A DNA stretch of 58,198 bases, taken from the IMG/VR virus record IMGVR_UViG_3300008255_001780, positions 1 through 58,198 of that record, one strand, 5' to 3'. Origin of the DNA: a virus. Its lineage: Duplodnaviria; Caudoviricetes. Below the pieces are notes generated by a model. That model had not been told where the DNA came from, ran no database searches, and saw only the letters and a list, made by a program, of their open reading frames with translations. Both the position numbers and the translations under genes were made by a program. Positions within the stretch are counted from its first letter, which is position 1, and the number at the start of each line of letters is the position of its first letter. Positions 436-57,945 of the stretch are shown piece by piece.

Positions 436-647
436 CTTCTACCTCCGGTGTACTCAGCAGGCGGTGCATCTCCTTCATGGCGTCGCTCACCGACGCCATG
501 AAGCTCTTGGTAGTTGCCGCGCGCGGCGTTGATCTCTAGACAGACGTCGCCGCTGCGCGTGTAAACGCAACAGGCGATGCAGACCTGACCGATCCAGAAT
601 CCGACGCCAGGTCTGCCTTCACCACGCTTGAGGCGCCGCGAGGTCAT
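432..647 (-). CDS. hypothetical protein
   Basis: MTSRRLKRGEG...; start and stop overlap both neighbours (TGATG / ATGA). Confidence 0.45.
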   Translation of the reverse strand: MTSRRLKRGEGRPGVGFWIGQVCIACCVYTRSGDVCLEINAARGNYQELHGVGERRHEGDAPPAEYTGGRR

Positions 648-1333
648 CACCCACGGCACGGCTTCACCACCGGCGGCTTGCGCAGCTTCCCGCCCGTCTC
701 CTTCTCGAACTCCTCGAACTGATCGGGGCGCAACCTCACGGATGCGCAGACTTGAGACCTGCGGTACTTCGGGTTGAACGCCCACACCGTACCGACCTCG
801 ATCCCGTTCGCCATGCAGTGCATCATGAGGCGACCAAGGCACCGCTCCGTGAAGATCAGCCCCTCCTCGCTGTGCATCCAGACGCGGCCGAGCGGATCCG
901 GCTGCGTCGCCTCGTGCATCGCACAAGCACAGGCGCCTTCGGGCCATCTGCACTCGAGCCCCCGGAGCTTGTCGGAGGCCCAGCGAGCGACCGAGCGAGC
1001 CGAGCTCTCGACGTCTGACGGCCTCACGCGGCCCTCGAACGCCAGATCCGTGATGAGTCCCCAGCCCTCCCTGCGGTACTGCATGTCGAGCCGGTAGGCC
1101 GCTTCCTCGCGGTCGTTGCCGATGCCCATCTCGCCACGCACCCAGGAGTCGCGCTGCGCCGCGATCTCCTCCTCGGTCATCTTGTGCGAGCGAGCCTTCT
1201 CGAGAAGCTCGAGAAGCTCCCGGTTGCACTCGACCTTGTTCATCGCCTCGTCCTCCTCGTCCTGGCGTTCCCAGCCCTGACGGCGCAGGCCGTCGACCAC
1301 CAAGTTGTAGAAACGGCGCTCGTCGTCGGTCAT
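647..1333 (-). CDS. hypothetical protein
   Basis: 228 aa ORF, coupled to neighbours, phage-like codon usage. Confidence 0.6.
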   Translation of the reverse strand: MTDDERRFYNLVVDGLRRQGWERQDEEDEAMNKVECNRELLELLEKARSHKMTEEEIAAQRDSWVRGEMGIGNDREEAAYRLDMQYRREGWGLITDLAFEGRVRPSDVESSARSVARWASDKLRGLECRWPEGACACAMHEATQPDPLGRVWMHSEEGLIFTERCLGRLMMHCMANGIEVGTVWAFNPKYRRSQVCASVRLRPDQFEEFEKETGGKLRKPPVVKPCRG

Positions 1334-1875
1334 GCCAGCCTCCTCGTCATGGCGAGGCGGATCACCTCACCCAGACGCTTTGCGTTGGCAAGCGCGTGGT
1401 TCCTGACGGCCCAGTGTGCATGCTTCACCATAAGCAAGTCCACCTCAAAGCCCGCGCGCTTCAGAACGTCCTCGATGGTGCAGTTGTCACGCCAAGCGCT
1501 AGAGTGCACCGGACACTCAATGGAGAACGTATCACACAGCGACTGGAGGGTCGCTCCGTCGAACTGCGGTCCCATGCAGTAGACGGACGGCATGTCCGCC
1601 CGGTCGATGAAGATCCGCAGTAAAGCCATCGCTGAGCAAGTCCACATCGTGGTCTTGGGAAACGTTGCCACACGCACCGCGCGGTCCTGGTCGAACCAGA
1701 ATCTCAGTTTGCTTTCGGCGACCGTGCGCCCTTTGTCCAGCTGCTCCTGAAGGTTGAGCGCCTGGTAGTATTCTTCGCCCGTCCCATCCGGGGTGACGAC
1801 CACAGCGCCGATGGCCGCGACGACGGCGTCTGCACCAGTTCCAAGTGTCTCAATGGCGAGTGAGATTGCTTTCAT
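1330..1875 (-). CDS. DEDDh 3'-5' exonuclease-like protein (Rv2179c-like) with degenerate active site
   Basis: AIETLGT..IGAV, TxxFWxxQ-like LRFWFDQ, GPQFD, WRDNCT, NHALANA; GGAG RBS upstream. Confidence 0.7.
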   Translation of the reverse strand: MKAISLAIETLGTGADAVVAAIGAVVVTPDGTGEEYYQALNLQEQLDKGRTVAESKLRFWFDQDRAVRVATFPKTTMWTCSAMALLRIFIDRADMPSVYCMGPQFDGATLQSLCDTFSIECPVHSSAWRDNCTIEDVLKRAGFEVDLLMVKHAHWAVRNHALANAKRLGEVIRLAMTRRLA

Positions 1876-1935
1876 GGTCCGTTCTCCTTCAGCTTGCGCG
1901 CTTTCCCGGTTCTCTGCGGGGAGCGCTGGGTTCCT

Positions 1936-2166
1936 TCACCGGCGCCCCACGCTCGTGGGGCGCTTCTTCTCCGCCTCGTGCGCGCGTTCTACGCATCGGC
2001 ACATGGCTAAGGTGTTCCTGATGCTCCTCCAGTCGGATGGCGACCCGGCTGCGATCACGCATTGACCGGACGCCTCGTGCTCGAGTCGGATGTGGGCTCT
2101 GCGCGTCGCGGAGGCCTCCCACCCTGGTAGCTTCTTCAGCAGCTCTCGCGCCAGCTTCCTGCTCAT
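1936..2166 (-). CDS. HicA-like small protein
   Basis: MSRKLARELL..GWEASATRRAHIRLEH..GQCVIAAGSPSDWRSIRN; ATGA overlap with helicase stop. Confidence 0.5.
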   Translation of the reverse strand: MSRKLARELLKKLPGWEASATRRAHIRLEHEASGQCVIAAGSPSDWRSIRNTLAMCRCVERAHEAEKKRPTSVGRR

Positions 2167-4598: not shown

Positions 4599-4676
4599 GA
4601 CATTGCTCCATTCATGAGGAGTTGACTCTCAGTTGGAAGCTGCCCATTTACACGGGCAGCCTCCTACTGCCGAGGA

Positions 4677-7614: not shown

Positions 7615-7635
7615 CGCGTTTAAACGATCACCGCT

Positions 7636-9850: not shown

Positions 9851-11862
9851 CACTTCGCCTCGTCCCAGTTGGACCCGAGCGCACCGTCCGCGAGGACCGG
9901 GATCTCGAGCTCGATTGCCGTCTCCATGATGTGCCGCATCTCCTCGAATGCCTCGCGCCCCTCCTTCGTGTCGGGGACGGAGGAGTTGAACTCGTCGTGG
10001 ACGGTGAGGTGCGGGACCAGGACGTTGAAGAGCCCAGCATTCCACATGTCCACCATGGCCTTCTTCATCAGGTCAGCAGCGGACCCCTGGAGCAGAGCGT
10101 TCAGCGCCTTATGGGTGAACGCACGACGAGGACGACCGCGCAGCGACTTCCCGGCGCAGAAGTCGTCGAGCGCTGCCTCGTCCACATACTCGGTGATCTC
10201 CTGCCCCTTAGAGACATAGCGCACCTCGAAGGCATTAAACCGCCGCTTGCGGCCCAGGATCGTCTTGATCGAGCCCTTGCCTGCAGCCCGCGCGGAGCAG
10301 CGGTCGAGCATCCCACGCATGAAGGGCGCGTTCTCTTGGAACTGCCCCATGATTGCCTGCGCTTCCTCGATGGTCACGCCGAGGTCTGCGGCCAGCTTTG
10401 GAACGCCCATCCCGTAGACGACCCCGAAATTGATGTTCTTGGCCTGCTTGCGCGGGACCCCCGTGATCTCGGACGCCATCGAGTGGAAGTCGGTCGTCTT
10501 GTCCTCGCGGTAGCGGCGCACAGCCTCCGAGGCGTCGATTCCCTTGGTGATCGCCGCATAGTGCACGAGGAGGCGGTACTCGATCTGCGACCAATCGAGC
10601 GAGCCCCACAGCATCCCCTCCTCCGGGATGAACATGGAGCGCATGAGCGGGCCCAGGACAGGGCCACGCGCCGGGATGTTCTGCAGGTTCGGCGACGACG
10701 ACGAGAACCGCCCAGACACCGTGCCGTTCTCGTCCGACTTCAGCTGGTTGAACATGCAGTGGAGCCGCCCGTTGACGTGGGACTCCAGGATATAGGACTT
10801 GATGAAGGTGCCTGCGATCTTATCGTTGGCACGTGCCTGGACGATCAGCTTCGCCACCTCGGCGTTGCACGCGTTGAGCCAGTCCTTGCGGAACGAGGGA
10901 CGACCAGTGGACGTGCGCTCGTACTCGAGGCTCAGGTTGTCGAAGGCGATGGCGATGCTGTCCGCCGACCAGATGTCAACGTGTGCCTGACTCATCTCGT
11001 TGATGCGCTTCTGGATGTCCGCTGACTCCTCGAGCAGTTTCTCGTGAGCCTCGGTCGCGCGGTCGACGTTTACACGCACCCCTCGAAAGCGCATCTCGAG
11101 GAGCAGGGGCGTGAGCGCCGCCTCGAGGTGGAACAGGTCGACCAGGTTCTCGGCCTCGAGGCGCGGCAGCTGCTTGTCCATGATGCGCCAAGCGAGCAGC
11201 GTGTCGTCCTGCGCATAGGGCGAGCAGTGTGCCGGGTGGACGCGGTGCATCTGCTCGATGTAGGACGGTCCATAGAGGTGGATCAGCTCCTCGTTGGTCT
11301 TGGTGACGTTGAGGTAGTCCTGGGCAAGGGCGTCCAGCTTGTAGGTCATGCGGTTCTCGTCGAGCAGCGGCTCTGCCACCTGCACGTCGCGGAACCGCGC
11401 CTTCGGGAAGATGACCCCGTGCCGCGTCCTCAGCCAGTCGAGGTCATACTGCAAGTTGGCGCCGACCATCTCGCCGTCGAACTCGGCCGCGTCCTCGCGC
11501 AACTGTCCCCAGAAGGCATCCGGGTCGAGGTTCACGTTCTCGAACTCATGAGCTACCGGGTAGTAGCTGGCGTCTCCCGACGCATAGGCCAGAGCGACGC
11601 CAGCTACTAGCCCATTCTCACGATGCGCGCCGGGACCGAGCGTCTTGAGGTCCGGGTCGTGGCCCTCGATGTCCAGGCCGATGCGGTCGAGGCCCTTGAT
11701 CGAGCGGTACTCGGGCGGGCGGTACTCCGGGAACTCGAGCGGCTGGTAGAACGTCGAGCGAGCAGCCGCAGGTGTCGAGGCGCGAGGCGCGGCGCGGATG
11801 GCCTCGCCCATCATGTCCAGCTGGGTTACCATCTGGGGTTTGCCATCCCTCAGCTGGACCAT
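9850..11862 (-). CDS. polA: family A DNA polymerase with 3'-5' exonuclease domain
   Basis: LDIE exo motif; GTVSGRFSSSSPNLQNIP; motif A DWSQIEYR; motif B RKQAKNINFGVVYG; motif C TVHDE. Confidence 0.95.
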   Translation of the reverse strand: MVQLRDGKPQMVTQLDMMGEAIRAAPRASTPAAARSTFYQPLEFPEYRPPEYRSIKGLDRIGLDIEGHDPDLKTLGPGAHRENGLVAGVALAYASGDASYYPVAHEFENVNLDPDAFWGQLREDAAEFDGEMVGANLQYDLDWLRTRHGVIFPKARFRDVQVAEPLLDENRMTYKLDALAQDYLNVTKTNEELIHLYGPSYIEQMHRVHPAHCSPYAQDDTLLAWRIMDKQLPRLEAENLVDLFHLEAALTPLLLEMRFRGVRVNVDRATEAHEKLLEESADIQKRINEMSQAHVDIWSADSIAIAFDNLSLEYERTSTGRPSFRKDWLNACNAEVAKLIVQARANDKIAGTFIKSYILESHVNGRLHCMFNQLKSDENGTVSGRFSSSSPNLQNIPARGPVLGPLMRSMFIPEEGMLWGSLDWSQIEYRLLVHYAAITKGIDASEAVRRYREDKTTDFHSMASEITGVPRKQAKNINFGVVYGMGVPKLAADLGVTIEEAQAIMGQFQENAPFMRGMLDRCSARAAGKGSIKTILGRKRRFNAFEVRYVSKGQEITEYVDEAALDDFCAGKSLRGRPRRAFTHKALNALLQGSAADLMKKAMVDMWNAGLFNVLVPHLTVHDEFNSSVPDTKEGREAFEEMRHIMETAIELEIPVLADGALGSNWDEAK

Positions 11863-12572
11863 CAGTCGACCCCGAGGAACTTGTGGACCTGCAGTCCCGC
11901 ACGATAGCCGAACCGCAGCGCGGAATCACGCACCGCTCCCAGGTTCGCGTTGTGCTCGTGCGAGCCGAGGTGCTCGTCCACCGGCTGGAGGAACACGGGG
12001 TCGCCCCTGTTCGGACGCGCGGGTGCGCCGCCGACCAGCGTGTTCCCGTCGCGGTGGCGCTGCATCGGTGCAGACGGCAACCCGTCGTCGGGATCGACCT
12101 CACCGGCCTTCAGGACGTACTTCCAGTTGACCAACCGCTTGCGGTACTCCTCATGCACCTTCGAGGTCTTCGGTGAGACAACCAAGGTCACCCCGGGCCA
12201 GTCGAGGCAGTCCTGCCAGAACGTGCCTGCGGTCTCGACCTGGATGCGCTTGAACCCATAGCGCATGAGCCAGTGGAACAGCTCGCCGAGGTCTTGGCGC
12301 GTCGGTTCGCCACCGGTGATCACGGCGAGGTCCGTGCGGCCATCCGCTTGGTTCATCGCGATCCGCGCGATCTCCTCCGCCTTCGCGTGGGGGTCGCTCT
12401 CGTCGCCCCACTCCGTGTCGCAGAACCAGCAGCGCAGGTTGCAGCCGGTGAGGCGGATGAACGCGGCAGGGTCGCCCGAGTAGGGGCCCTCGCCCTGGAT
12501 GGTGTAGAACACCGCGTGGTACTGCAGGATGTCGCCGTGAGTGCGCCCCCGCGGTTCGTTGCGTCCGAACAT
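11862..12572 (-). CDS. queE: 7-carboxy-7-deazaguanine synthase (radical SAM)
   Basis: FYTIQGEG, RLTGCNLRCWFCDT, ITGGEP, VSPK, LQVHK. Confidence 0.93.
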   Translation of the reverse strand: MFGRNEPRGRTHGDILQYHAVFYTIQGEGPYSGDPAAFIRLTGCNLRCWFCDTEWGDESDPHAKAEEIARIAMNQADGRTDLAVITGGEPTRQDLGELFHWLMRYGFKRIQVETAGTFWQDCLDWPGVTLVVSPKTSKVHEEYRKRLVNWKYVLKAGEVDPDDGLPSAPMQRHRDGNTLVGGAPARPNRGDPVFLQPVDEHLGSHEHNANLGAVRDSALRFGYRAGLQVHKFLGVD

Positions 12573-12574
12573 GA

Positions 12575-12724
12575 TCAGCTCCCCAGACAGTAGATGACGC
12601 CGCCCCAGAACGCAATGCACGCGGCGCAGGCGACGAGGAACCACCGCAGTTCACGCTTCTGCAGCGGCTTGGGCTCGTAGTACTCCTTGACGTGAGGAGG
12701 AGCGTAGGGCGGGATCTCGATCAT
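12575..12724 (-). CDS. small membrane protein (49 aa)
   Basis: Manual translation MIEIPPYAPPHVKEYYEPKPLQKRELRWFLVACAACIAFWGGVIYCLGS; ATGA overlap and GGAGG RBS. Confidence 0.55.
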   Translation of the reverse strand: MIEIPPYAPPHVKEYYEPKPLQKRELRWFLVACAACIAFWGGVIYCLGS

Positions 12725-15499: not shown

Positions 15500-16703
15500 A
15501 GATGGTCAACCTTTCCGATGCTCGAGTGATGGCAGTATAGAGCCAGCGCCTGCGCTGCTCCCGGTCGTTTACACGCATCTGGTCGTCCGCGACGACGACA
15601 TGGGGCCACTCGGACCCCTGGCTCTTGTGGGCGGTCACCACATAGCCATAGTCGAAGTGCATGATCCCAGAGCCACGAGGCCACACCGACCGCTCACCGT
15701 AGTTCTCCTGGAAGTACCCAGGATCAACGAGGCAGTCGGTCAGGTTGTGGCCGTCGTACTCGATGCCCATCCGCCCGAGCTTGTGCCCCTGGAGGAGCTT
15801 CATCTCGGTCAGGGCAGTCGCCGTGACCCCATTCAGCAGCTGCCGGTCGTGGTCGTTGAGGCGGCAGATCAGCTTGTCACCTTCGACAGGGTAGAGCACG
15901 TCGCGATCCAGGTGGGAGCGCATCTGCCGCGTGATCTTGAACCGCGACAGGTTGCTGCCCGTGATCACCTGATCCGCCTGCGTGACGAGGTCGCGGTCCC
16001 AGTCCTTCTTACGCAGGATCTCGACCGCGCCGCCCATCTTCCCGTAGGAGCAGGCCTCACCCGAGCGCACCTTCTGAGCAAGCTGGATGATGGGTGAGTC
16101 GGCAGCCTGGCGGTGGATGTGCTCGAGGACGAAGTCGTAGTCGTTCGGGCCGAGGTGCGCCTTGCCGCGAACGGGCGGAAGCTGGCCAGGATCACCGAGG
16201 TAGAGGATGGGGATGCCGAATGACTCGAGATCGCTTCCTATTCGCCGGTCGACCATGGACGACTCGTCCACGATGACCAGCGACGCCTCGGTGATCTCCG
16301 CCTCCTCGCGAAGGCTGAACATGCTCGACGAGTCGGCCTCCTTGTCCGCGAGGTCCTTGCGCCACGAGGCGAGGAGGCGCTGATCGGGTTCCTCCCTGCG
16401 CAGCTCCTGTTCGAGGCACTCGCGCAGCTCCTGCATCTCCGACTCACCCGAGTTGCCTTTGGGCTGGTAGATGAGGCGGTGGATCGTCGTAGCACCGGGA
16501 CAGCCCTTGCGACGCAGGACGGATGCTGCCTTGCCCGTGAAGGCCGCGAACTTCACGCGGCCACCGTGCTCCTCCGCGATGTAGCGGGCGAGGGTCGTCT
16601 TACCCGTGCCAGCATACCCGCCAAGCGAGAACCGCGGTTCACCTGAGCGCAGCCACTCGGTGATGCGCTTGAGTGCCTCTTCCTGATCTGGTGACCACGC
16701 CAT
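15492..16703 (-). CDS. Dda/RecD-like SF1B helicase
   Basis: GYAGTGKTT, AFTGKAA, TIHRLIY, VDESSM, GDPGQLPP, HRQA, TAHKSQGSEW, YTAITRA. Confidence 0.92.
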   Translation of the reverse strand: MAWSPDQEEALKRITEWLRSGEPRFSLGGYAGTGKTTLARYIAEEHGGRVKFAAFTGKAASVLRRKGCPGATTIHRLIYQPKGNSGESEMQELRECLEQELRREEPDQRLLASWRKDLADKEADSSSMFSLREEAEITEASLVIVDESSMVDRRIGSDLESFGIPILYLGDPGQLPPVRGKAHLGPNDYDFVLEHIHRQAADSPIIQLAQKVRSGEACSYGKMGGAVEILRKKDWDRDLVTQADQVITGSNLSRFKITRQMRSHLDRDVLYPVEGDKLICRLNDHDRQLLNGVTATALTEMKLLQGHKLGRMGIEYDGHNLTDCLVDPGYFQENYGERSVWPRGSGIMHFDYGYVVTAHKSQGSEWPHVVVADDQMRVNDREQRRRWLYTAITRASERLTIYV

Positions 16704-18067
16704 CACAGACCTCCCAGGAGATCGACCTGCGCCGGCGCCTTCTCCTGACCGCCTGCCCACTCGCCGAACGTGACGAGCTCCGCCATGCAGAGCAGGTTGC
16801 GGACGCGGGAGTCCCACAGGCACATCTCAAATGGCCACCCGAGCGCCTCGACGCGGTCGCGGATGTACTTGCGATGGTCCGGCGAGCAGTTGAAGTAGTG
16901 CTTCGCCGACTCGTCACCCGCTTTCTCGACGGGTGACCGGTGATGGTAGTGCTTGAAGTGCCCGCCGTTCATCGGGAACTTGTCGGGATCGACCCCAAGC
17001 TCCTGCAGGAAGGCGACCATCTCAAGATGCACCTGGTTCGGGTCGGTCGAGGTCGCCGTGAACCCCTGCTCAGCCAGCGACGTCCACAAGGGGCCGATGG
17101 TCGTCGGCATCGGGAAGGTGAGGTGGGTGTCCAGCGCCACGTTGTCGAGGGTGGTAAAGTAGTTCATGTAGTGCGCCGACGACTTCTTGCCGCCCGTCGC
17201 GCCCTCGTGGTGAAAGATGTCAATCATGCCGAAGCCACCGTGCTGCACCCAGGCGGCCGAGTCACCCGAGTACCAGGGGACCGTCCTGACCATGACGTTG
17301 CCGGTGGTCGCCAGGCCATGCGTCATGGTGCCCGGCCACTTAGTCTCCAGGTACTTGTGCTTCTCGCGCGACCACTGGACACGCAGGTTCTCCGCGAGGT
17401 CGTTGCGCGGTGAGACGCAGATGTAGTTGCTCCTGCCGCGGACCTGCTTCACCACCTCGTCGAGGCGGTCGTTGTCTTCGCCCTGGTGGTAGACAGGCAG
17501 AATGCGCTGGCCGAACTCGGCCTCGAGGATCTCGAAGTTGATGTCCGACACGCGCAGCGCTTCCTCGAGCTCGCGCTGCGTCGGGTTGCGCCCACGCTCA
17601 CCAGGGATCACGTCGAGGTTGACCATCCAGATCTCCTCGAACATGTCCCCCGCGATCTCGAGGAAACGGTGGTACTTGCGCTTCACGTCGTCGACCGTCG
17701 TCTTCTCGCCCTTGTTCCAGGCCGTGAAGGCGCCCGAGTCGAGCATGATCGACTTCGGGTAGGGGCGTCCCTCGAGGCGGCGACAGATCTCCATGAGGAC
17801 CTCGCCGGTGTCCCAGTCGACAGTGCGTCCCCAGGCCCTTTGCTGCGCGCGGCGACGCTCGTCCTTCGCGCGGATGCGATCCATCAGGCCTGGGTTGGCC
17901 TTGAGGGCCGCTTCCGCGTCGAAGATGCCCGCGGCGAGGTCGGACACCCACTTGAGGCACGCCTTCTCGTAGTCGCCATGGAGCGAGAAGAGGCGGTGGG
18001 TGTTCATGCGGTTCTCGACCGTCTGGTAGGGGTCGTTGGTCGGGGTGCCTGACATGTAGAAGTGCAT
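16703..18067 (-). CDS. dpdA: DNA guanine transglycosylase (TGT-fold, DpdA-like)
   Basis: MLDSGAFT, NLDVIPG, LPVYHQGE, THGLA, PWYSGDSAAW; sits beside queF/folE/queC. Confidence 0.8.
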   Translation of the reverse strand: MHFYMSGTPTNDPYQTVENRMNTHRLFSLHGDYEKACLKWVSDLAAGIFDAEAALKANPGLMDRIRAKDERRRAQQRAWGRTVDWDTGEVLMEICRRLEGRPYPKSIMLDSGAFTAWNKGEKTTVDDVKRKYHRFLEIAGDMFEEIWMVNLDVIPGERGRNPTQRELEEALRVSDINFEILEAEFGQRILPVYHQGEDNDRLDEVVKQVRGRSNYICVSPRNDLAENLRVQWSREKHKYLETKWPGTMTHGLATTGNVMVRTVPWYSGDSAAWVQHGGFGMIDIFHHEGATGGKKSSAHYMNYFTTLDNVALDTHLTFPMPTTIGPLWTSLAEQGFTATSTDPNQVHLEMVAFLQELGVDPDKFPMNGGHFKHYHHRSPVEKAGDESAKHYFNCSPDHRKYIRDRVEALGWPFEMCLWDSRVRNLLCMAELVTFGEWAGGQEKAPAQVDLLGGL

Positions 18068-47511: not shown

Positions 47512-48300
47512 TCAGCCCACGATCTGGAGGGTCGCGCCGGCCTTCTGGGCCGCGGCCTTCGCCGCCCGGTAGGTCTGCACGTCCCGCGCCTGCTCGCGGG
47601 TGATGGTATGGGAACCACCCCGCCCGCCGGGACCGCCTGCGGCGCCGCCACCAGAGGGAGCAGGGAACCAGTGCGGCGCCTTCTCCTTCATGGTCTCGAG
47701 CCACTCGGCCGGAGTCATCGGGTTCTTGCCGTCCTTGCCGTAGACGGTCGAACCACCTTCCTCCGCCACCAGCTTCCCGTCCTCGCGAACGGTGAAGACA
47801 CCCATGGCGCGGAATAGCGCGTCCTCGATGGCCGAAGGAACGACACCCAGCTCCGCAGCGGCCTGGCGAAGGGACCCCTCCACCATCAGCTTCTTGACCT
47901 GCCCCTGAGCCGCCTCGAGCTGCTCCTGGAGCGTCATGCGGGACTGCTCGGCCTTCTCGAGCTGCTTCTGGTGATCGGCCTTCAGCCGTTCCGTGCGTCG
48001 CTCGATGACCGCGTCCGTCTTGCCTTCGGCGAGGAGCTTCGCTTCCTCGTCATTCTCGAGCCGCGACATGATCGTCCGCACCGCCTGAGGGTCGAGACCC
48101 TCCCACGTTTTGGACATCTCTTCGATTTTCTGCTGGAGCGTTTTCTTCTCCGTCAGAATCTCGTCGCGGTTCGCAGCCAGTCCGGAGGTCGCCTCCTTCA
48201 CGGCCTTGTCGATGAGCGACTTGATCGCCGGTGCGCTCGGGTCGATCTGACCGCCCGCGCCGGCTTCTGCACCGCCTGGGTTCTGGGTTTCGTCGGGCAT
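47512..48300 (-). CDS. capsid scaffolding protein
   Basis: coiled coil, APHWFP..GGGA, directly upstream of capsid gene. Confidence 0.8.
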   Translation of the reverse strand: MPDETQNPGGAEAGAGGQIDPSAPAIKSLIDKAVKEATSGLAANRDEILTEKKTLQQKIEEMSKTWEGLDPQAVRTIMSRLENDEEAKLLAEGKTDAVIERRTERLKADHQKQLEKAEQSRMTLQEQLEAAQGQVKKLMVEGSLRQAAAELGVVPSAIEDALFRAMGVFTVREDGKLVAEEGGSTVYGKDGKNPMTPAEWLETMKEKAPHWFPAPSGGGAAGGPGGRGGSHTITREQARDVQTYRAAKAAAQKAGATLQIVG

Positions 48301-48428: not shown

Positions 48429-48599
48429 TGGAGAAAAAGGTGTTGACAGGGACCAGCTCAGCGTCATCCAGAGGACGATGCGGACTGCTACCTCGATGAA
48501 GCAGAGACGGGCACGGATCGTTTACACGCCTTAGGCAAGGGGTCGCCGACCGTTCACCCCGACTTCGACGCGCAGGCCTACGACGACTTTCCTTTCTGA

Positions 48600-50222: not shown

Positions 50223-50414
50223 TCACTTCTCCATATGTTTTCGCTCGTAGGCTTGAGCTTCTTCAAGTCGAGGAGACGTCATGGCTTCCTCCCAATAGCC
50301 GAACTTGGCGGCCGCCTCGACTGAAGCTGGAGTATGCGTTCCCGACTTCAGGTTGATGACTCCGATCTTGTCAGAAAGGAAGACGTCATCACTGCGTTCT
50401 GCCACAATCACCAT
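50223..50414 (-). CDS. small protein coupled to MuF-toxin gene (candidate immunity/partner)
   Basis: 63 aa MVIVAERSDD...AKFGYWEE; TAATG overlap with upstream stop. Confidence 0.6.
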   Translation of the reverse strand: MVIVAERSDDVFLSDKIGVINLKSGTHTPASVEAAAKFGYWEEAMTSPRLEEAQAYERKHMEK

Positions 50415-52927
50415 TATTTTCCTTCGACGATGCGCCACGGTATGTTGGCGCGGCTAAGAGCTTCTGCAAGCGTCTTGTCAGGTCCCTGTTCACCAAGCGA
50501 CCCACCGTAGAAGATGACTTCTTCAATGTCATCTACGCTGGCGCCGTTGTGGATTTGGACCTCCCAGTACTCCATCTTGAGATTATCGAAAGGCATGTCT
50601 GGGTCCCAAGTTCCCAGATAATCATCTAAGTTGTCGTAGGTGCGCCCAACCGCTCTATAGTTGGGACTAGTAATTGGTTGAGGAACAGTATTAAACTGAT
50701 AGCTGCTGCTTTTAGCATAACGCGAGATGAAGTCGTTATCTTCGCCGGCGAAGCGGTTCATGTCGAGTGAGTCGCCAACAGTAAAAGTAGTTCGCGACTG
50801 AACGGCTTTCTTCTTGAACTTGACTGAAACGTCTCCATAAAGGCGGGTCGCCAGCTGGTAACCGTCTTTGTCCGCCATGTAGCCATAAATAGGCCGCTTT
50901 GCATCGGGCAAGTCATCAGCCAGTGCCATGAGGTTGCGCTCGACGTTACGACGCATCTCAGGAGCCAGCGCACCAGCAGATTTCCCTGTTTCAAACTGCG
51001 ACTTGAAGCGCCCTTCCTTTAGTATCTTGGTCAGGTTCCTGCGGTCGAGACGAGTGAAGAGGTCCGCTTTCTTGACGCGAGCTTCCAGTATCTCGTCGAT
51101 CTCGGCAGGTGTTATGTTGCGGCCGTTTAGCTTCTGAGTTAAACGGATATCTTCAAGCTTCGCCAGATCCGGGTTGGCTACTCTGTTGAACTTGGGCAGG
51201 GGTGCAACTGGAATAGCTTTATTGAGCAAGCGCGTCGGACCAATTCCCATCCTAGCACGGTAAGCGTCGGTCGACTCCGTGATGTACTCGACGACGATCT
51301 CTGGAACGTCGAGGTCACGATTGACCGAAACGACGCGCAGTTGCGTTCCTCGAGGAAAGATAAACTCGTCCTGGTCAGCGAAGGCACCAGTTGAGTGCTT
51401 GACCCTACGACCAAGAACGGCACCTTCAGGCATCCGAATCTTGATCACGCCAGGCTGAAGGTCCTCGATTTCTGGTAAGATTGCTTTGTCCAGCGCACTT
51501 TTAGACTGCGTCACTGACATGAAGCCACGGTCAGTGTAAACGTCACCAGGTTCGAGAGTGAGCATGTCTTCCAGCTGCTCAGAATGAACCGCGCGGTAGA
51601 AGGTCGTCGGCTTCTGCAAGTAGGTTCCATTTGACAAGTGAGCATCGAGAGCTCGTCCCATGTCGGCGAGTTCTTCGTTCTTGACCTCGAAACCGTCACG
51701 CAGGATGCCGTTGAGTGTCGTAGCGTCGCCCTGAATATACGAGTCGACTGCAGACAACTGCTTCTCGAAGGCTGGTGTTTTGTCGTAGGTCGAGTAGGGC
51801 GCGACGGGAGTGAACGGCTTGGTCGGTACGTCCAACTCCTTACCGATCTTCGACTTGAGCTGGCCAAGAGTAAGCAAGCGACCTTTATCGTTGATGAACC
51901 GGTCGGGAGTGATCCCTTGCTCCTTCCATATGCGCCAGCGAGTGGGACCAAGCACATCCTTCTGCACGTCGTCCGACTGGCGACGCAGCCAGTCGAAGTA
52001 GGTTAGGTTACCTGGCACCTGCCCGTCCATGCTCGCACGAGTGCCTACGGGCATCTCGTCCATGTCGAAACCCAGCTCTCGCCAGGACTTCGTGACAGCG
52101 ACGGTGGTCGAGCGGCAGTTAGGATGTGCAGGCGGACGAGCCATAGGCGGATCGAGAGGCAAGCTGCCGTCAGGAACCTTCCAGTTGGGGTCGAGCGTGA
52201 CAGGCCCCACGCGACCATCCCGCTGCTGGCAGATAGGCGTCGTTCGCGTGTCGAGCGTCGCAACCCAGCGGACGCCCTTGATGATGTCCGAGTTCGCTTC
52301 CCACACCATCTGGCGCCCGGTGTTGGTGGCGTGGTTGATCGAGGTCCGAACGAGCGCCTCTGTGCCTCGACGCGTGACCTCGCGCACCCCATCCTTGTAG
52401 CCAAGGGACCTCGACCCGACGAGGGTGCGGATGATGTCGTCGGTCGTCGTGCCCGACGTGATCCCGTCTAGGATGGTCGTCCAGGTGCGCTTGAGGTCGT
52501 TCTCGCGGAGCTGGTTCACCCAGTCGCCGAGGACTGCGCCGTTGAAGGGCTTGAGGGTGGCGGCCGTCTGCAGGACGCCAAGGTTGGGCGTCGTCACGTC
52601 GAGGCCCGCAGGCAGCGTGCGCGCGAAGGCAGCAGCCTCCGCTTCCGCGGCGACCACGGTTGCTTCGCGAGCGCTTTCGGAGATGACCGGGGCGAGGCGC
52701 GCGTGGGTCGCGTTGATCAGTTCGGCGACTTGCGCCTTCAGCGCTACGGCTCTCGCCTCTGTGAACCGGAGGTTCTCGAGATCGACGCCGAGGAGGGCTT
52801 CCTTGAGCTGAGCATCCACGCGATTGAGTATCTTGAGCGCCTCAGTCGCCTCGCGGTTCCCGTAGCGGATCCACTTGATCTGCTGTGCTACCTGAAAGTC
52901 CAGAAGTCGCTCGTTCACCGATGCCAT
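50414..52927 (-). CDS. MuF/SPP1 gp7 minor head protein fused to VIP2-like ADP-ribosyltransferase and DUF3626-like domains
   Basis: MuF: WVATLDTRTTPIC, PPAHPNCRS; ART: FYRAV, FMSVT, QDEFIFPRG; third domain KSQFETGKS, RPIYG, RTTFTVGDS, YWEVQIH. Confidence 0.85.
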   Translation of the reverse strand: MASVNERLLDFQVAQQIKWIRYGNREATEALKILNRVDAQLKEALLGVDLENLRFTEARAVALKAQVAELINATHARLAPVISESAREATVVAAEAEAAAFARTLPAGLDVTTPNLGVLQTAATLKPFNGAVLGDWVNQLRENDLKRTWTTILDGITSGTTTDDIIRTLVGSRSLGYKDGVREVTRRGTEALVRTSINHATNTGRQMVWEANSDIIKGVRWVATLDTRTTPICQQRDGRVGPVTLDPNWKVPDGSLPLDPPMARPPAHPNCRSTTVAVTKSWRELGFDMDEMPVGTRASMDGQVPGNLTYFDWLRRQSDDVQKDVLGPTRWRIWKEQGITPDRFINDKGRLLTLGQLKSKIGKELDVPTKPFTPVAPYSTYDKTPAFEKQLSAVDSYIQGDATTLNGILRDGFEVKNEELADMGRALDAHLSNGTYLQKPTTFYRAVHSEQLEDMLTLEPGDVYTDRGFMSVTQSKSALDKAILPEIEDLQPGVIKIRMPEGAVLGRRVKHSTGAFADQDEFIFPRGTQLRVVSVNRDLDVPEIVVEYITESTDAYRARMGIGPTRLLNKAIPVAPLPKFNRVANPDLAKLEDIRLTQKLNGRNITPAEIDEILEARVKKADLFTRLDRRNLTKILKEGRFKSQFETGKSAGALAPEMRRNVERNLMALADDLPDAKRPIYGYMADKDGYQLATRLYGDVSVKFKKKAVQSRTTFTVGDSLDMNRFAGEDNDFISRYAKSSSYQFNTVPQPITSPNYRAVGRTYDNLDDYLGTWDPDMPFDNLKMEYWEVQIHNGASVDDIEEVIFYGGSLGEQGPDKTLAEALSRANIPWRIVEGK

Positions 52928-53157: not shown

Positions 53158-55185
53158 TCACTCCTCACAGCTGCGGGTTCCAGTGCTCGGATCATAGAAG
53201 CATGCCCCACCGTTCGCAACAGCAGCGATCTGCTCCTCCTCGTGTTCCGGGACCACCTCGTCGAGCGACTTCATGATCCCGAACCGCTTCCCGTCGATCC
53301 TGAAGGTGGTGCAGCCCTTCGCGCCTGCCTTCCACGCCTCGACGTAGATGGACTTGAAGGACTCGTAGTCGACGGCGCCGCCGACGTTGCAGGTCTTCGA
53401 GATCGAGGAGTCGACGAAGCGCTGGGCCGCCGTGTAAACGCGGACATGGTCGAAGACGGAAAGGTCATCCGCTCGCTTCCCGTAGACGCCGAACTCGCGC
53501 ACCCCGTAGTCGTCAATCTCGACGTACTGCTTGGTGACCCCGTCCTCGTTGATGATCTCGCGGCCATTCTTGTAGGCGAAGACGGGCTCGATGCCGGAGG
53601 ACATATTGTCCGCGGTGAGCGAGATCGTCCCGGTGGGCGCGATGGAGGTCAGGTGCGAATTGCGCAGGCCGTGCTTGCGGATCAGGTCGAGCACGTCCTC
53701 GTCGAGGGCTCCTGAGTTGACGAAGCCGCCGGCCAAGAACTTCTCCGCGTCGTAGAGCGGGAACGGCTCCTTCTCGGCCGCGAGCAGCGCCGAGGCGCGG
53801 TAGCACTCGTTGACGAGGACCCGAAGGATCATGTCCTGGTGCCAGATATAGGCGTCGGAGCCGTACTCAGCCCTAGTCGCTTCGATGGCATTCGCCATCC
53901 CCGTGACGCCGAGACCCATGCGCCGCTTGTTCTTCGCCTCGAGCTCCTGCTGAGGCAGCGGATACTGCGCCCCGTCGATCACGTTGTCCATCATGCGGAC
54001 GACGCCGGGGATGTCCGCCTTAAAGGCCTCGTAGTCGAAGTGGAAGGATCCGCCCCACTTGCGGATGTACTTCGGCATAGCAAAGGAGCCGAGAAGGCAG
54101 GCGCCATAGGGCGGGAGCGGCTGCTCGCCGCAGGGGTTGGTGGCCGCGATGTACTCGCAGTAGTAGAGGTTGTTCATCGAGTTGATCCGGTCGATGAACA
54201 GGACGCCGGGTTCTGCCCAGTCCCAGGTCGCTCCCATCAGCTTGTCCCACAGGGGACGCGCGCGGACCGTGCGCACCACCTCGCCTTTGAATACCAAGTC
54301 GAAGTCGGAGTCGTTCTCGACCGCTTCCATGAAGGCGTCGGTGACGGCCACCGAGACGTTGAACGCGGATAGGCGGTTCTGGATCGACACCTTTTCGCAC
54401 ATGTCGAGCATGAACGGCTCGAGCTCCGTGAAGAACGCGAGGCGTGCCTCCTGCTCGGCCACGGCCCGGAGCAGGGCGTCTTCCTGCTCGGGGCCGTAGG
54501 TCTTCTTCGACTCGAGCTCCGCGAGCTCGGACAGGAGCTCCTGACGCTTCATGCCGAGGAGCATGTTGACCTTCATCACGTCGTCCGCGAGGGCCGTGGT
54601 CTTCGCGTCAATGAACTCCTCGATGTCTGGGTGGTCGATCCGCAGGACGGCCATCTGAGCGCCGCGGCGGCCACCAGCAGAGCGGACCGTCTTGCAGGAA
54701 GCGTCGTAGATGTGCATGAAGGAGACGGCGCCGGACGCCGTCGAGCGCAGCGACTCGATGAACGCGCCGCGCCACCGGAGGGTGGAGAAGTCGTAGCCGA
54801 TGCCCCCGCCCATCCGCATCGTCAGGAAGGCCTCCTTGACCTTGTCCATGATGTCCACTGAGTCGTCCTCGATGGTACCGGACACGAAGCAGTTATGGGC
54901 GCAGATCCTCATGGGCGCGCCGATGGCACGCTGCACGCGCCCCGCGGGCATGAAGAGCTGGTGGAGGAGTGTCAAGTAGATGTCCCGGCGATGCGCCTCG
55001 TTGTCGGCGAGGGTGTTCGAGATGCGGAAGCACATATCCTGGAACGGCTCATCCGGGGAGATGCGATACTTCTGGATATGCTGGTCGATTGAGACTGGAT
55101 GGCTCGGCCCATACATGCAAGGTAGCTCCTGGTTCACGTCTAGCGAAAGGACTTCATCGTGCGACGACATACGGTTAGGCCTCAA
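53158..55185 (-). CDS. nrdJ: class II (B12-dependent) ribonucleotide reductase
   Basis: PAGRVQ, NCFV, GGGIG, TNPCGEQPL, IAPTGTIS, KGCTTFR, C-terminal C...SCE; no small subunit seen; true start may be slightly downstream. Confidence 0.9.
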   Translation of the reverse strand: MRPNRMSSHDEVLSLDVNQELPCMYGPSHPVSIDQHIQKYRISPDEPFQDMCFRISNTLADNEAHRRDIYLTLLHQLFMPAGRVQRAIGAPMRICAHNCFVSGTIEDDSVDIMDKVKEAFLTMRMGGGIGYDFSTLRWRGAFIESLRSTASGAVSFMHIYDASCKTVRSAGGRRGAQMAVLRIDHPDIEEFIDAKTTALADDVMKVNMLLGMKRQELLSELAELESKKTYGPEQEDALLRAVAEQEARLAFFTELEPFMLDMCEKVSIQNRLSAFNVSVAVTDAFMEAVENDSDFDLVFKGEVVRTVRARPLWDKLMGATWDWAEPGVLFIDRINSMNNLYYCEYIAATNPCGEQPLPPYGACLLGSFAMPKYIRKWGGSFHFDYEAFKADIPGVVRMMDNVIDGAQYPLPQQELEAKNKRRMGLGVTGMANAIEATRAEYGSDAYIWHQDMILRVLVNECYRASALLAAEKEPFPLYDAEKFLAGGFVNSGALDEDVLDLIRKHGLRNSHLTSIAPTGTISLTADNMSSGIEPVFAYKNGREIINEDGVTKQYVEIDDYGVREFGVYGKRADDLSVFDHVRVYTAAQRFVDSSISKTCNVGGAVDYESFKSIYVEAWKAGAKGCTTFRIDGKRFGIMKSLDEVVPEHEEEQIAAVANGGACFYDPSTGTRSCEE

Positions 55186-56716: not shown

Positions 56717-56938
56717 ATGCTTAACATCCTCCTTACCATCCGTAACCTCGACGAGCACAAGTGCCACCCGGCGCAGTTCAGGCGAGTGGCTTCTGCCCTT
56801 CACGACGCGAGCCAGCGAGCGGCTTCGCTGTCTGAGGTTGCTTATACCAAGATGCTTCTCGCCGTCATGCGCGAGAAAGCGCGGGCTCGGGTGAACGACC
56901 CGATTCCGCTTGATGCGGTGCACGACCGCGCGCGATGA
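56717..56938 (+). CDS. hypothetical protein
   Basis: 73 aa, AGGAG RBS. Confidence 0.6.
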   Translation: MLNILLTIRNLDEHKCHPAQFRRVASALHDASQRAASLSEVAYTKMLLAVMREKARARVNDPIPLDAVHDRAR

Positions 56939-56972
56939 TGCGCAGACAACAACTGATCAACGGAGACGCTAG

Positions 56973-57197
56973 ATGGCCTTCATCGGAACCACACCACGCA
57001 CCGAGTACGAGCAGGACGTGATCGCGAACGCTGACCACTGGACAGCTGCCCGCGGTCGTGTCCGCTCGAACCGCACGGTCGAGCGCTTCGAGTCGCTCGC
57101 CGATGCCCGCGCCTACGCTCAGAAGATGGGCGACGGCAGGACCATGATCTACGCGGTCGATGCCAACGGCATGTCCGCTCATGTGGAGAACGCTTGA
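56973..57197 (+). CDS. hypothetical protein
   Basis: 74 aa, CAACGGAG RBS. Confidence 0.65.
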   Translation: MAFIGTTPRTEYEQDVIANADHWTAARGRVRSNRTVERFESLADARAYAQKMGDGRTMIYAVDANGMSAHVENA

Positions 57198-57421
57198 TGA
57201 CCCAGCGGGAGAAGCTGCTCGCCCAGCTCAAGAAGCGCGGGTGGAGTGAGGTCGCCTCGAGGTCGAGCAAGTACGTCGTCCTCACGAAGGCTGGCACTGC
57301 ATTCTACTACGTCGGGAAGGCAGGCGCCTTGCGCTACGGTCGCACGGTCGCCGAGTCCTACCCGCAGGACAACCTCAGGCGCGCACTCCTCGAGGCGCAC
57401 GATAGGGAGGCTCAAGCATGA
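57194..57421 (+). CDS. hypothetical protein
   Basis: 75 aa, coupled to both neighbours. Confidence 0.6.
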   Translation: MMTQREKLLAQLKKRGWSEVASRSSKYVVLTKAGTAFYYVGKAGALRYGRTVAESYPQDNLRRALLEAHDREAQA

Positions 57422-57945
57422 TCGACCCCAAGGACCTGGAGATGCGCGTTCAGCGCACGGCGACCGCTGGCTACATCACGGTGCCGAACTGGTGGGAAGC
57501 GTCTACTCACATGCTCGAGCGCGCGCGGACCTTCTTCGAGGAGAACCCGACCAAGGTAGCGATGCCTATTGGAAGCGGCTTCACTCGGATCATTTACACG
57601 AGGAGGAAGCGCCAGCAGCTGCCTCCCGTCGAGGGTCCGGGCACGGTCACCGGCAGGTTCACCCACAACGAGCCCTCCTTCCGCGAGGTGCGCAAGAACA
57701 AGTGGCCCGAGGGCTATGGCACTGGCGTTCAGCGCATGACGCCGGAGGACGCGCGCAAGCTCGCCGACGTGACTCAGGAGCAGGCGCGGTCCATCATGCA
57801 GAAGGTGGTCGGCGTCGACTGGTCGGAGCTCGAGCGTCGGGTTTTGGCGTGGCAAGCCGAGATGGAGCAGGAGCTTGAGGCTGAGGGGTTTCGTCGCGCA
57901 GGCGATGGCGCGCTGCGCGACTCGTGGATCAAGGAGGACGAGTGA
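57418..57945 (+). CDS. small protein carrying PolA-like motif fragments
   Basis: GTVTGRF...VDWSELERRVLA; GGAGG RBS, ATGA overlap. Confidence 0.6.
   Translation: MIDPKDLEMRVQRTATAGYITVPNWWEASTHMLERARTFFEENPTKVAMPIGSGFTRIIYTRRKRQQLPPVEGPGTVTGRFTHNEPSFREVRKNKWPEGYGTGVQRMTPEDARKLADVTQEQARSIMQKVVGVDWSELERRVLAWQAEMEQELEAEGFRRAGDGALRDSWIKEDE

Follow-up and report, generated by a model that had tools for sequence, protein, structure and literature searches.

A dispersed ten-letter word in a marine-type siphophage contig, a one-letter variant of a genus-wide palindrome

Why would a phage genome carry the same ten-letter word again and again, on both strands and mostly inside genes, in codons that it otherwise avoids? 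An earlier note on this DNA raised the question and suggested a binding or processing site, such as a centromere, a stoperator-like roadblock, a programmed nick site or a priming signal. The DNA, hereafter the window, is a contig of 58,198 nucleotides from a Nanhaivirus-like siphophage of marine type and is about 75% complete. We examined the word, CGTGTAAACG, in the window, in related phages and in host-like genomes. Genes were taken from our own crude, GC3-based calls, on which all coding counts rest.

Copies of the word and selection on codons

Ten exact copies of CGTGTAAACG are present in the window, six on the plus and four on the minus strand, all where the earlier note had placed them. 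Its three one-mismatch copies (7617, 51533 and 57591) are likewise present, and a fourth, at 4645 on the minus strand (CGTGTAAATG), had been overlooked. The sites are:

558 to 567, plus strand: exact copy, intergenic, flanked by ORFs 1-435 and 647-1333
4645 to 4654, minus strand: variant CGTGTAAATG, at the tip of an intergenic hairpin with a 13-bp stem
7617 to 7626, strand-neutral: single copy of the palindromic form CGTTTAAACG, 2 nt upstream of the -35 box TTGACA on the gene strand
11067 to 11076, minus strand: exact copy in the DNA polymerase A gene, CGT GTA AAC encoding RVN
15566 to 15575, minus strand: exact copy in a Dda/RecD-like helicase gene, encoding RVN
19452 to 19461, plus strand: exact copy in a 220-aa gene of the queuosine-precursor cluster; the coding strand carries the reverse complement, GTT TAC ACG, encoding VYT
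24354 to 24363, plus strand: exact copy in a UvrD-like helicase gene, TTT ACA CGC encoding FTR
26284 to 26293, plus strand: exact copy at the tip of a hairpin with an 8-bp stem, in the gap between the primase gene and the next gene
33142 to 33151, plus strand: exact copy in a GTA-like tail protein gene, encoding VYT
38842 to 38851, minus strand: exact copy in the tape-measure gene, encoding RVN
48519 to 48528, minus strand: exact copy, intergenic between the PhoH and scaffold genes; a promoter-type motif is about 100 nt away
51533 to 51542, plus strand: variant AGTGTAAACG in a head-morphogenesis gene, encoding DVYT; the full word is one synonymous step away
53431 to 53440, plus strand: exact copy in a ribonucleotide reductase gene, encoding VYT
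57591 to 57600, minus strand: variant CGTGTAAATG, inside a 175-aa ORF on the plus strand

The chance expectation, which the earlier note had put below 0.1 copies, came to about 0.03-0.05 copies on recomputation against 10 observed: an order-3 Markov model gives 0.032 copies, and 100 dinucleotide shuffles gave a mean of 0.05 and a maximum of 1, none of them reaching 10. CGTGTAAACG is the top over-represented 10-mer of the window. The one-base flank extension described previously, a G at position -1, is found at 8 of the 10 exact copies, and the literature searched held no description of the word, which the earlier note had also failed to recognise as a known motif. Its structural observations hold as well, in that the 26284 copy forms the tip of an 8-bp stem (z -4.1) and 2 nt separate the 7617 variant from a TTGACA-N17-TATGAT promoter of the gene strand. 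The overlooked copy at 4645 is on a 13-bp stem (z -5.7); no significant hairpin was found at the copies at 558 and 48519.

Seven of the 10 exact copies fall within genes by our calls, those at 558, 26284 and 48519 being intergenic; the eighth coding copy that had been claimed requires a doubtful overlapping ORF. Of the peptides reported, RVN in polA, the Dda-like helicase and the tape measure, and FTR in the UvrD-like helicase, are as described, whereas VYT is encoded in three genes (the 220-aa Que-cluster gene, the GTA-like tail protein and ribonucleotide reductase) and not in four. The codons used are indeed rare ones: GTA and GTT make up 3.0% and 7.7% of valine codons, TTT 10.6% of phenylalanine codons and ACA 3.9% of threonine codons. 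Within-gene synonymous shuffles, the codon-aware null that had been proposed, gave a mean of 0.155 copies and a maximum of 2, with none of 1,000 reaching 7. The window proteome offers nine protein-compatible places for CGTGTAAACG, of which seven are filled against 0.08 expected. The shuffles and the place-filling comparison agree that selection acts on the DNA word and not on the peptides.

A palindrome in the relatives and an even spacing

Relatives among viral contigs were recovered with an alignment query of DpdA, a single-protein scan having given nothing. Six relatives in all have substantial sequence: the named phages R5C, Pan1 and R26L and the uncultivated contigs L015, L016 and L017. 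In all six, as in most metagenome fragments of lesser length, the palindrome CGTTTAAACG takes the place of CGTGTAAACG, at equal density. The window's word is a one-letter variant of this genus-wide palindrome, by a T-to-G change at position 4, a relationship that the earlier note had missed. Thirteen metagenome fragments gave a palindrome core in 10, a G core in 2 (L040 and L052) and neither in 1 (L047), and the palindrome is kept across contigs of 46-62% GC.

Each lineage fills the places available to its own word. The palindrome occupies 7/10 protein-compatible places in R5C, 6/9 in Pan1, 4/10 in R26L, 2/4 in L015, 1/1 in L016 and 2/3 in L017, or 40-70% overall, whereas the window fills none of its palindrome places (0/2 with the same gene caller, 0/3 with the manual gene list) and relatives fill 0/6, 0/5 and 1/7 of their places for the G variant. 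Free synonymous drift, which the earlier note had held up as evidence against selection, is thus not what the relatives display, a related word being kept in each. Site positions in the window and the relatives are mostly non-orthologous and are made by synonymous changes: at the position of the 24354 copy relatives have synonymous codons without the motif, and at that of the 53431 copy they have CGTGTAGACG, one synonymous change off. The palindrome at 7617 has orthologous sites in R5C (68768), Pan1 (56442) and R26L (21472). On this comparison of genomes, positive selection creates and keeps the tag at whatever places coding permits, and the tag's positions turn over among relatives.

Sites are also spaced more evenly than random placement predicts, a feature that had escaped the earlier note. 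The mean gap is 4.0-4.6 kb and the coefficient of variation of the gaps 0.36-0.59; the individual values of 0.46, 0.59, 0.51 and 0.36 were reached by random placement in 51, 337, 76 and 0 of 20,000 trials, the window's test taking in the post-hoc one-mismatch copies. The comparison shows a roughly even spacing of 4-4.5 kb to be kept genome-wide. The orientation of copies is unrelated to spacing, and neither orientation taken alone is evenly spaced. Since the symmetric double variant CGTGTACACG has no copies in the window and orientation is unrelated to spacing, the site is probably read asymmetrically, although a palindrome, the form in most lineages, would be the more natural target of a symmetric dimer.

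These features bear on two of the functions proposed previously. Programmed single-strand interruptions are found in T5, tf and phiKMV, and in tf a 9-mer consensus occurs in 14 copies over 46 kb, each nicked, with co-evolution of nickase and site proposed (PMC3517423, available text). The copy number and word length of CGTGTAAACG resemble those of tf. However, the tf sites all lie on one strand, whereas the window carries six plus and four minus copies, and nicking the relatives' palindrome on both strands would be expected to break the duplex; the word thus lacks a defining feature of such nick sites, and we regard this reading as decidedly improbable.

Transcriptional sites, whether stoperator-like or of another sort and bound by a repressor or an activator, would fit the position of the sole palindromic copy (7617) beside a promoter, and the repressors of Cluster A mycobacteriophages are described as monomers that bind asymmetric sites dispersed genome-wide (PMC9283540, available text). 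Against this, 7 of the 10 copies are intragenic, the copies within one-strand genes are three forward and four reverse, and a separate conserved promoter word exists besides CGTGTAAACG. A Pfam search of the 69 ORFs of the window, itself about 75% complete, found neither an integrase nor a repressor, and the accessible portion of the R5C paper reports neither (PMC5454422); phages of this group appear to be lytic. With copies on both strands and a palindrome in relatives, a defining feature of a stoperator-like roadblock fails, and a transcriptional role is very improbable. What does stand from the earlier note is that the word behaves as a dispersed recognition site.

Host genomes and satellite-like islands

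Dispersed words that are maintained within genes have their classical examples in Chi-like and uptake words, and a phage might have copied such a signal from its host. We counted both words, as the earlier note had advised, in host-like genomes reached through tail and portal homologues. Both proved to be lacking from host-family chromosomes, with the exception of the islands described below. Twenty Hyphomicrobiales-type genomes, the window's presumed host group, carry 0-8 copies each, no more than the control in 19 of the 20, and 101 Rhodobacteraceae-type genomes, the host family of the relatives, carry 84 palindromes in total, 57 of them having none. These counts argue against a host-derived signal, as does the persistence of one palindrome over the GC range given above, and all the null models fail to yield a compositional accident; we find either origin hardly credible. 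Two palindrome copies stand 2.6 kb apart in genome G021, and no shared gene links them to the phages.

The islands, which the earlier note had missed, are 16 portal-bearing elements in 15 of 401 genomes, and none of the 16 lacks a core site near the portal gene. Core sites number 24 in 203 kb within the island window versus 5 in 347 kb outside. The same gene order recurs at the 16 places: integrase, xis, large protein, portal, scaffold-like protein, HTH protein, TerL. No capsid or tail genes were recognised in the islands. They match what characterises satellites, namely an integrated element of about 10 kb with integrase, excisionase, its own replication gene and genes that redirect capsids or packaging, lacking a full virion module. 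Judged from their gene content, these integrase-portal-terminase islands of about 10 kb are probably satellites of the phages studied here. Islands and phages have in common only the portal, the scaffold-like protein and, in 5 of the 16, a protein of the type of p210, a 210-aa product of the window. Island portals are 41-51% identical to Nanhaivirus portals versus at most 34% to those of other named phages, and the phage-type promoter core was found in 6 of the 16 islands. The 20 Hyphomicrobiales-type genomes were searched for the island-type portal and gave none, so that no islands with the G variant came to light in the window's presumed host group.

The element that helper and satellite classically have in common is a cos or pac site. 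The word might then be a packaging signal, recognised by the small terminase at many initiation points and carried by satellites for their packaging, and a site does stand just upstream of the large-terminase gene in R5C (7600) and R26L (2732). Known pac sites are single regions, however, whereas these genomes carry 10-20 dispersed copies (the window being without its terminase region). The islands possess a TerL and a portal of their own as well as an HTH protein that is probably TerS-like, which suggests an independent packaging specificity, and no island family matches a phage gene adjoining terL. We consider a packaging role improbable. A paper on packaging by the Dinoroseobacter GTA reports no packaging motif.

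A 'self' tag, its candidate readers and known systems

The reading that we tentatively favour, at somewhat under even confidence, is that CGTGTAAACG represents, for this lineage, a cis-acting 'self' tag of the whole genus, addressed to a trans-acting factor that the phage encodes and that has changed its specificity here; we infer both the factor and its downstream effect. The factor would read the tag asymmetrically, as a monomer or on a single strand. Tagged DNA would be treated as 'phage' and be either shielded or recruited to the phage's DNA-handling machinery, and untagged host DNA would not be served; that these phages break down host DNA is an assumption of the model. Even spacing would bring any stretch to within about 2-3 kb of a tag. 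The position-4 T-to-G change would represent a shift in reader specificity, which may stem from satellites or defences exploiting the old word. A fuller version, in which a private, evenly spaced 'self' word is read asymmetrically by a phage-encoded machine that spares or serves tagged DNA only, satellites counterfeit the tag, the phage escapes them by altering one letter along with the reader and the T-to-G switch is a snapshot of an arms race (helper against satellite, or phage against defence), seems to us doubtful. Three proteins of the window may be considered as readers:

21069 to 21701, minus strand: p210, a two-domain protein of 210 aa lying within the deazaguanine gene cluster, its C-terminal domain a DUF3489-like winged helix; weak candidate trans factor
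24480 to 26225, minus strand: AEP-type primase (PF22548 AEP-TOTE, E 6e-14; phrog_21866 primase); possible alternative reader
16703 to 18067, minus strand: homologue of long DpdA-type DNA transglycosylases; possible alternative reader

The window being only about 75% complete, the reader may also sit outside it. p210 is at best a weak candidate. Homologues occur in the 5 islands mentioned and none is detectable in the other 11. Its predicted structure (mean pLDDT 75) gave no match at E 0.001 in a fold search, with repeated low-confidence partial matches to winged-helix regulators over the last 65-75 residues. Six palindrome-type genomes have WDDNSIRS as the putative recognition helix, the window has WSDDSIRS and R5C has WKPQSLMA; covariation of this helix with the word was rejected, R5C being a palindrome user with a different helix.

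Alternatively, the AEP primase or a partner helicase might read the word on a single-stranded template as a signal for priming or replisome loading, the even spacing setting Okazaki-scale intervals. The palindrome would then serve both strands, and an asymmetric variant would have to occur both ways round. The window encodes such a primase, one of the replication proteins that have diverged more from those of the relatives (46-51% identity, compared with 57-62% in tblastn for DpdA). Enzymes of the AEP primase type recognise words in the template, GTG in the case of pRN1 ORF904, TTTGGTTA and GTG(A/G) in that of phage NrS-1 (PMC8718748, available text), and the window's variant creates a GTG. 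Reading on a single strand would account for the missing symmetric variant and for the mixture of six plus and four minus copies, and regular spacing fits. Yet total site density equals that of the palindrome lineages, so that density per strand is halved without compensation, and either orientation alone is not evenly spaced. Islands with three or four different large genes keep the same word, at least one of these genes resembling a primase-helicase of the island's own (a lead only). The distant phage DSL-LC04, whose primase belongs to the same family at 28% identity, has no comparable word, and a 10-nt site exceeds any documented primase site that we found. On balance this explanation is rather unlikely.

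The word might instead be a target or docking site of the 7-deazaguanine system, the long DpdA exchanging a G in or near it, or loading there, such that modification would be confined to tagged DNA. The window has genes for FolE, QueD, QueE, QueC as well as QueF, that is, the preQ1 pathway, together with the DpdA homologue, and the word contains G; every relative found through DpdA carries the word, in a set itself selected by DpdA. A monomeric base-flipping enzyme would be expected to take a palindrome one strand at a time, with room for a shift at a single position, and satellites too small for the pathway would benefit from modification in trans. ParB-like genes adjoin dpdA in phiSM and Mufasa8, and bacterial DpdA is described as requiring a ParB-like partner (PMC10164549, available text). 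No ParB-type Pfam match was found, however, among the 69 window ORFs or in the annotations of R5C, Pan1 and R26L, a result that also tells against the centromere proposed earlier, whose partner is absent from the window. Phage DpdA motifs reported so far are short, GA in iggy, with two distinct motifs in CAjan (available accounts), and deazaguanine replacement in phages is put at tens of percent of G (PMC10516641, available text); a full pathway would argue for bulk modification and not for about 30 sites per genome. The structural model of the long DpdA (mean pLDDT 70) has weak TIM-barrel/TGT matches, none at E 0.001 or better, and gives no evidence of an added DNA-binding domain. In the DpdA tree the window is on a long branch, and L052, a 2.5-kb contig with G-type sites, is nested among palindrome-type phages. 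The distant phages phiSM and Mufasa8 have DpdA and no comparable word; taken with DSL-LC04, neither the primase nor the DpdA family alone predicts the word. We judge the modification reading quite unlikely.

If the 'self' tag reading is correct, a lytic phage keeps a genome-wide sequence password through selection that overrides codon preference at nearly every place the proteins permit, and parasitic islands have copied it. Such a password could explain how a phage tells its own DNA from that of its host without bulk base modification. In metagenomes, the word also offers a sequence marker by which to detect this phage group and its satellites. The system is tractable, as R5C and R26L grow on a sequenced laboratory host (Dinoroseobacter shibae), the word is short with a natural one-letter specificity switch, and islands in host genomes offer a second readout.

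Among known systems, stoperators are mostly intergenic, point in one direction relative to transcription and belong to temperate phages. Here, by contrast, 7 of 10 copies are in genes and in both orientations, spacing is even, relatives use a palindrome and the phages are apparently lytic. The likeness lies in the many asymmetric words of 13-14 bp across a phage genome, read by a monomeric phage protein with which the consensus co-varies (PMC9283540 and PMC6550527, available text). The nick sites of tf, phiKMV and T5 offer a 9-mer repeated about 14 times in a lytic genome of 46 kb and a proposed enzyme-site co-evolution (PMC3517423, available text), on one strand in tf, whereas our words, known from sequence alone, are on both strands and palindromic in relatives. 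AEP primase words (GTG for pRN1 ORF904, TTTGGTTA for NrS-1) are likewise specific and single-stranded, of up to 8 nt, although the available text reports no selected, evenly spaced genome-wide distribution for them (PMC8718748). HIP1 (GCGATCGC) of cyanobacteria is a palindrome selected inside genes irrespective of frame, with a function still unknown (PMC5861425, available text), but is a hyper-abundant cellular 8-mer at more than one per gene, whereas the present word is sparse, evenly spaced and specific to phages and satellites. In the cos and pac elements of P4 and SaPI/PICI a satellite copies a cis element of its helper to use a helper function; those are single, compared with 2-3 sites per 10-kb island and 12-20 per phage here, and the present islands own a terminase and a portal. 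Chi occurs in E. coli at about one per 4.5 kb. Like the word in our favoured reading, Chi is short and is read asymmetrically by a translocating machine (RecBCD or AddAB) that protects the DNA bearing it; but Chi belongs to the host, whose genome is enriched in it, whereas the present word runs to 10-12 bp and is missing from the genomes of the host family. The 'self' tag, if real, would be a virus-owned analogue of Chi-type self-recognition.

Copies of the word and codon choice in the window

A pattern search found ten exact copies of CGTGTAAACG in the window, six on the + strand and four on the − strand, each of which the earlier note had located. No other 10-mer of the window is as strongly over-represented; dinucleotide-preserving shuffles yielded a mean of 0.05 copies (maximum 1) and an order-3 Markov model predicts 0.032. 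Four places differ from it at a single position, three of them already noted and the fourth (4645) overlooked:

4645 and 57591, one-mismatch copies CGTGTAAATG
51533, one-mismatch copy AGTGTAAACG
7617, one-mismatch copy, the palindrome CGTTTAAACG

A G precedes the word in eight of the ten exact copies, the flanks being otherwise unconserved. Using our own GC3-based gene list, we placed seven of the ten copies within genes, so that the earlier description of the word as mostly genic stands with seven rather than eight coding copies; three are intergenic, though intergenic sequence makes up 7% of the window. The copies within genes read as follows:

Three copies, CGT GTA AAC (RVN)
Three copies, reverse complement, GTT TAC ACG (VYT)
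One copy, TTT ACA CGC (FTR)

The codons used by the word are rare in the window (GTA is 3.0% and GTT 7.7% of Val, TTT 10.6% of Phe and ACA 3.9% of Thr). Shuffling synonymous codons within genes produced a mean of 0.155 copies (maximum 2), and none of 1000 shuffles reached seven. Moreover, the encoded proteins are compatible with the word at nine places, seven of which are filled compared with 0.08 expected from codon usage, demonstrating that the target of selection is the DNA word, as had been proposed from the sequence.

The phage, its relatives and a change of word

The window is 58,198 bases long and makes up an entire IMG/VR virus record, with an estimated completeness of 75%. Its replication module has ∼77% DNA identity to those of the Dinoroseobacter phages R5C and R26L, which can be cultured on Dinoroseobacter shibae DFL12, and of the Pseudanabaena phage Pan1, all phages of the genus Nanhaivirus. 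Nearly all genes up to ∼55.2 kb lie on the − strand. Pfam and PHROGs gave the following gene names:

Helicases: two UvrD-like, one Dda/RecD-like, one SNF2
Replication: AEP primase, polymerase A, clamp, clamp loader
Nucleotide metabolism and other: ThyX, RNR, dCMP deaminase, PhoH
Tail: GTA-like genes
11862-12644, 16703-18067 and 18330-22428, full preQ1 pathway (FolE, QueD, QueE, QueC, QueF) and a long homologue of DpdA-type transglycosylases
18882-19544, 220-aa gene with no assigned function, between FolE and QueF

The DpdA homologue (454 aa) is extended by ∼100 residues at its N terminus and varies in its C-terminal region, and the phage DNA probably contains a deazaguanine of the preQ1 type. 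The GTA-like tail/host-specificity protein (32758-36741, − strand) has its nearest genes, at 40–46% identity, in Hyphomicrobiales (Aestuariivirga, Rhodobiaceae, Rhizobium and Kaistia) and not in Rhodobacterales, from which we infer that the host probably belongs to Hyphomicrobiales; the same result hints at a change of host compared with R5C and R26L. Separately, 50414-52927 (− strand) encodes an 837-aa Mu F-like head-morphogenesis protein with fused ADP-ribosyltransferase and DUF3626 domains. Its GC3 (0.68) is below that of its neighbours, and GC in the window reaches its minimum (0.588) in the 48–52 kb stretch around it; the fusion may be an ejected effector gained by transfer.

Counts of CGTGTAAACG in R5C, Pan1 and R26L are 0, 0 and 1. 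In its place the palindrome CGTTTAAACG occurs 12, 11 and 14 times in these phages (expected, 0.05–0.17), with an additional 4–6 copies each bearing one outer mismatch. Three uncultivated viral contigs reached by DpdA alignment have 4, 3 and 4 palindromes in 14–21 kb. Among 13 metagenome fragments, ten have the palindrome core, two (L040 and L052, both short) the G core GTGTAAAC and one (L047) neither; since L040 and L052 carry the G core, the G variant is, on these fragments, not exclusive to the window.

Filling of protein-compatible places was compared across genomes with one crude gene caller for all. The palindrome fills 7/10, 6/9, 4/10, 2/4, 1/1 and 2/3 places in six relatives and 0/2 in the window (0/3 with the manual gene list), and the G variant fills 0/6, 0/5 and 1/7 in relatives. 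In alignments of 250-nt neighbourhoods, ordinary synonymous codons stand in the relatives opposite the window sites; in RNR, for example, CGTGTAAACG in the window faces CGTGTAGACG in all three named relatives. Conversely, the SNF2 helicase and PhoH genes of the relatives share conserved palindromes that are erased in the window. A one-letter change, accompanied by a complete site turnover, suggests that the specificity of a putative phage-encoded reader of the word has changed. The sole common place is the palindrome at 7617, which aligns with R5C 68768, Pan1 56442 and R26L 21472; as the window copy precedes a TTGACA-N17-TATGAT promoter by two bases, promoter function may be what holds it there. 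The Pan1 record (ON968452, 62.5% GC) has the same palindrome and promoter word as the roseophages, yet a cyanobacterial host is recorded; this host assignment may be worth re-examining.

Another word, TATAAGCGAGTTATA (reverse complement TATAACTCGCTTATA), is also conserved; it occurs in the window at 31223, 45360 and 48416 (+) and 55215 (−), and 8–10 times each in R5C, Pan1 and R26L. In the relatives it stands between an upstream AAAAAGGTGTTGAC and a downstream, ribosome-site-like AACGGAGA, an arrangement suggestive of a phage-specific promoter whose spacer and −10 region are conserved. No counterpart of the dispersed word emerged from a literature search on phage motifs that are over-represented and regularly spaced; among the full-text matches listed for CGTTTAAACG there were only cloning, vector and primer contexts with no bearing on motifs of phage genomes, and the main texts of the R5C and Pan1 papers, supplements aside, do not mention a repeated word. 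We therefore treat it as undescribed within the literature searched.

Host genomes and integrated elements

Counts in candidate host genomes, which the earlier note had suggested, revealed no enrichment. The window word has 0–8 copies in each of 20 Hyphomicrobiales-type genomes reached via the tail homologue, at or below the reversed-word control in 19 of them; the palindrome totals 84 copies in 101 genomes from the family of a Pseudorhodobacter MAG, mostly below control, and 57 genomes have none. Shuffles, the Markov model, the codon-aware null and these counts exclude a host word or chance, a reading that retains hardly any probability. In a Roseibium-type chromosome (locus L065), two palindromes lie 2.6 kb apart (G021:C1:2594349 and 2596965), with no gene in common with the phages or the integrated elements.

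The few chromosomal palindromes are clustered, and the clusters in two bacterial genomes, G106 and G068, fall within integrated elements of ∼11–16 kb whose sole blastp-level link to the phages described above is a portal protein, with 41–51% identity to Nanhaivirus portals (≤34% for the next named phage portals). When 401 genomes of the family were searched for this portal, it turned up at 16 places, distributed over 15 Rhodobacteraceae-type genomes, in elements of ∼10–16 kb:

G106:C9, ∼97.5-113.5 kb, island
G068:C1, ∼878.5-890 kb, island
14 more places (loci L061-L109), islands

In every one of the 16, one or more GTTTAAAC-core sites are present within ∼10 kb of the portal; 24 core sites lie in 203 kb inside a fixed span around the portal compared with 5 in 347 kb outside it. 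The G variant is found inside two elements (G068 and G330), and six of the 16 also have the phage promoter core. The common order is integrase, excisionase, large protein, small gene, portal, f4, scaffold-like protein, HTH protein and TerL. The large protein is of three or four types, one of them primase-helicase-like as a lead from Atlas, likewise the source of the HTH lead. An HMM of the scaffold-like protein matches phage scaffold genes, including window 47515-48300 (E 2.6e-10), and neither capsid nor tail genes could be recognised in the elements. By gene content, this family probably consists of undescribed satellites of Nanhaivirus-type phages. A packaging signal would agree with the helper–satellite analogy, but the many dispersed copies do not fit one and the islands bring their own terminase, making this role decidedly improbable.

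The word is selected in phages of 46–64% GC, hosts lack it, and it is copied by elements equipped with integration, replication-type and packaging genes of their own. Together this suggests a cis-acting site that serves a trans-acting phage function.

Spacing, orientation and possible readers

In the window and the three named relatives, core sites are spaced more evenly than chance would produce, the mean gap being 4.0–4.6 kb. Coefficients of variation of the gaps are 0.46 in the window (from 14 sites, one-mismatch copies included, a post-hoc choice) and 0.59, 0.51 and 0.36 in the others, values reached by 51, 337, 76 and 0 of 20000 random placements. In the window, spacing does not depend on orientation: when the labels were shuffled, 15644 of 20000 trials gave values no higher than the observed one. 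No alternation of orientation was seen; separate coverage of each strand does not seem to be needed for function. The orientation and location of the copies do not fit stoperator-like sites, which we regard as highly improbable. Nick sites, comparable in number and length to those of phage tf, are very unlikely too, since the tf sites are confined to one strand in the available text (PMC3517423) and the window has six + and four −.

The symmetric double variant CGTGTACACG has no copies in the window, and the site would thus be read asymmetrically. A primase or loader word accounts for this asymmetry and has a precedent in the AEP template words GTG and TTTGGTTA (PMC8718748, available text); however, per-strand density is halved in the window, uncompensated, and the islands probably have a primase of their own, so we consider this role unlikely, though still deserving some weight.

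We tentatively favour a reading in which the word would be a 'self tag' on phage DNA, with a putative reader shielding or recruiting tagged DNA. This is consistent with orientation independence, with even coverage and with islands having to carry the word although they are otherwise self-sufficient. One weak candidate reader is p210:

21069-21701, −, p210, 210 aa, inside the deazaguanine gene cluster

Its predicted model has a C-terminal three-helix plus hairpin domain, three of five family members have a below-threshold match to Pfam DUF3489, and its profile matches the DUF3489 protein of the G106 island (94.9% probability, E 4e-8), homologues occurring in 5 of 16 islands. Counting against it, the putative recognition helix is strongly different in R5C despite the same palindrome, and a fold search gave no significant match.

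The gene set of the window also makes a target or docking site for DpdA attractive. Nevertheless, the DpdA motifs described in the available texts are short, GA in phage iggy being one, replacement is reported to affect tens of percent of G (PMC10516641), a Pfam search found no ParB-type partner in the window, and L052, with its G core, breaks the link between the word and the DpdA tree; we give this role only a small probability.

In two distant DpdA phages, phiSM (L055 35631-36805) and Mufasa8 (L053 42034-43564), a ParB-like gene directly adjoins dpdA, unlike the Nanhaivirus group, where none was recognised. This ParB-like and dpdA pair resembles the bacterial DpdA–DpdB pair.
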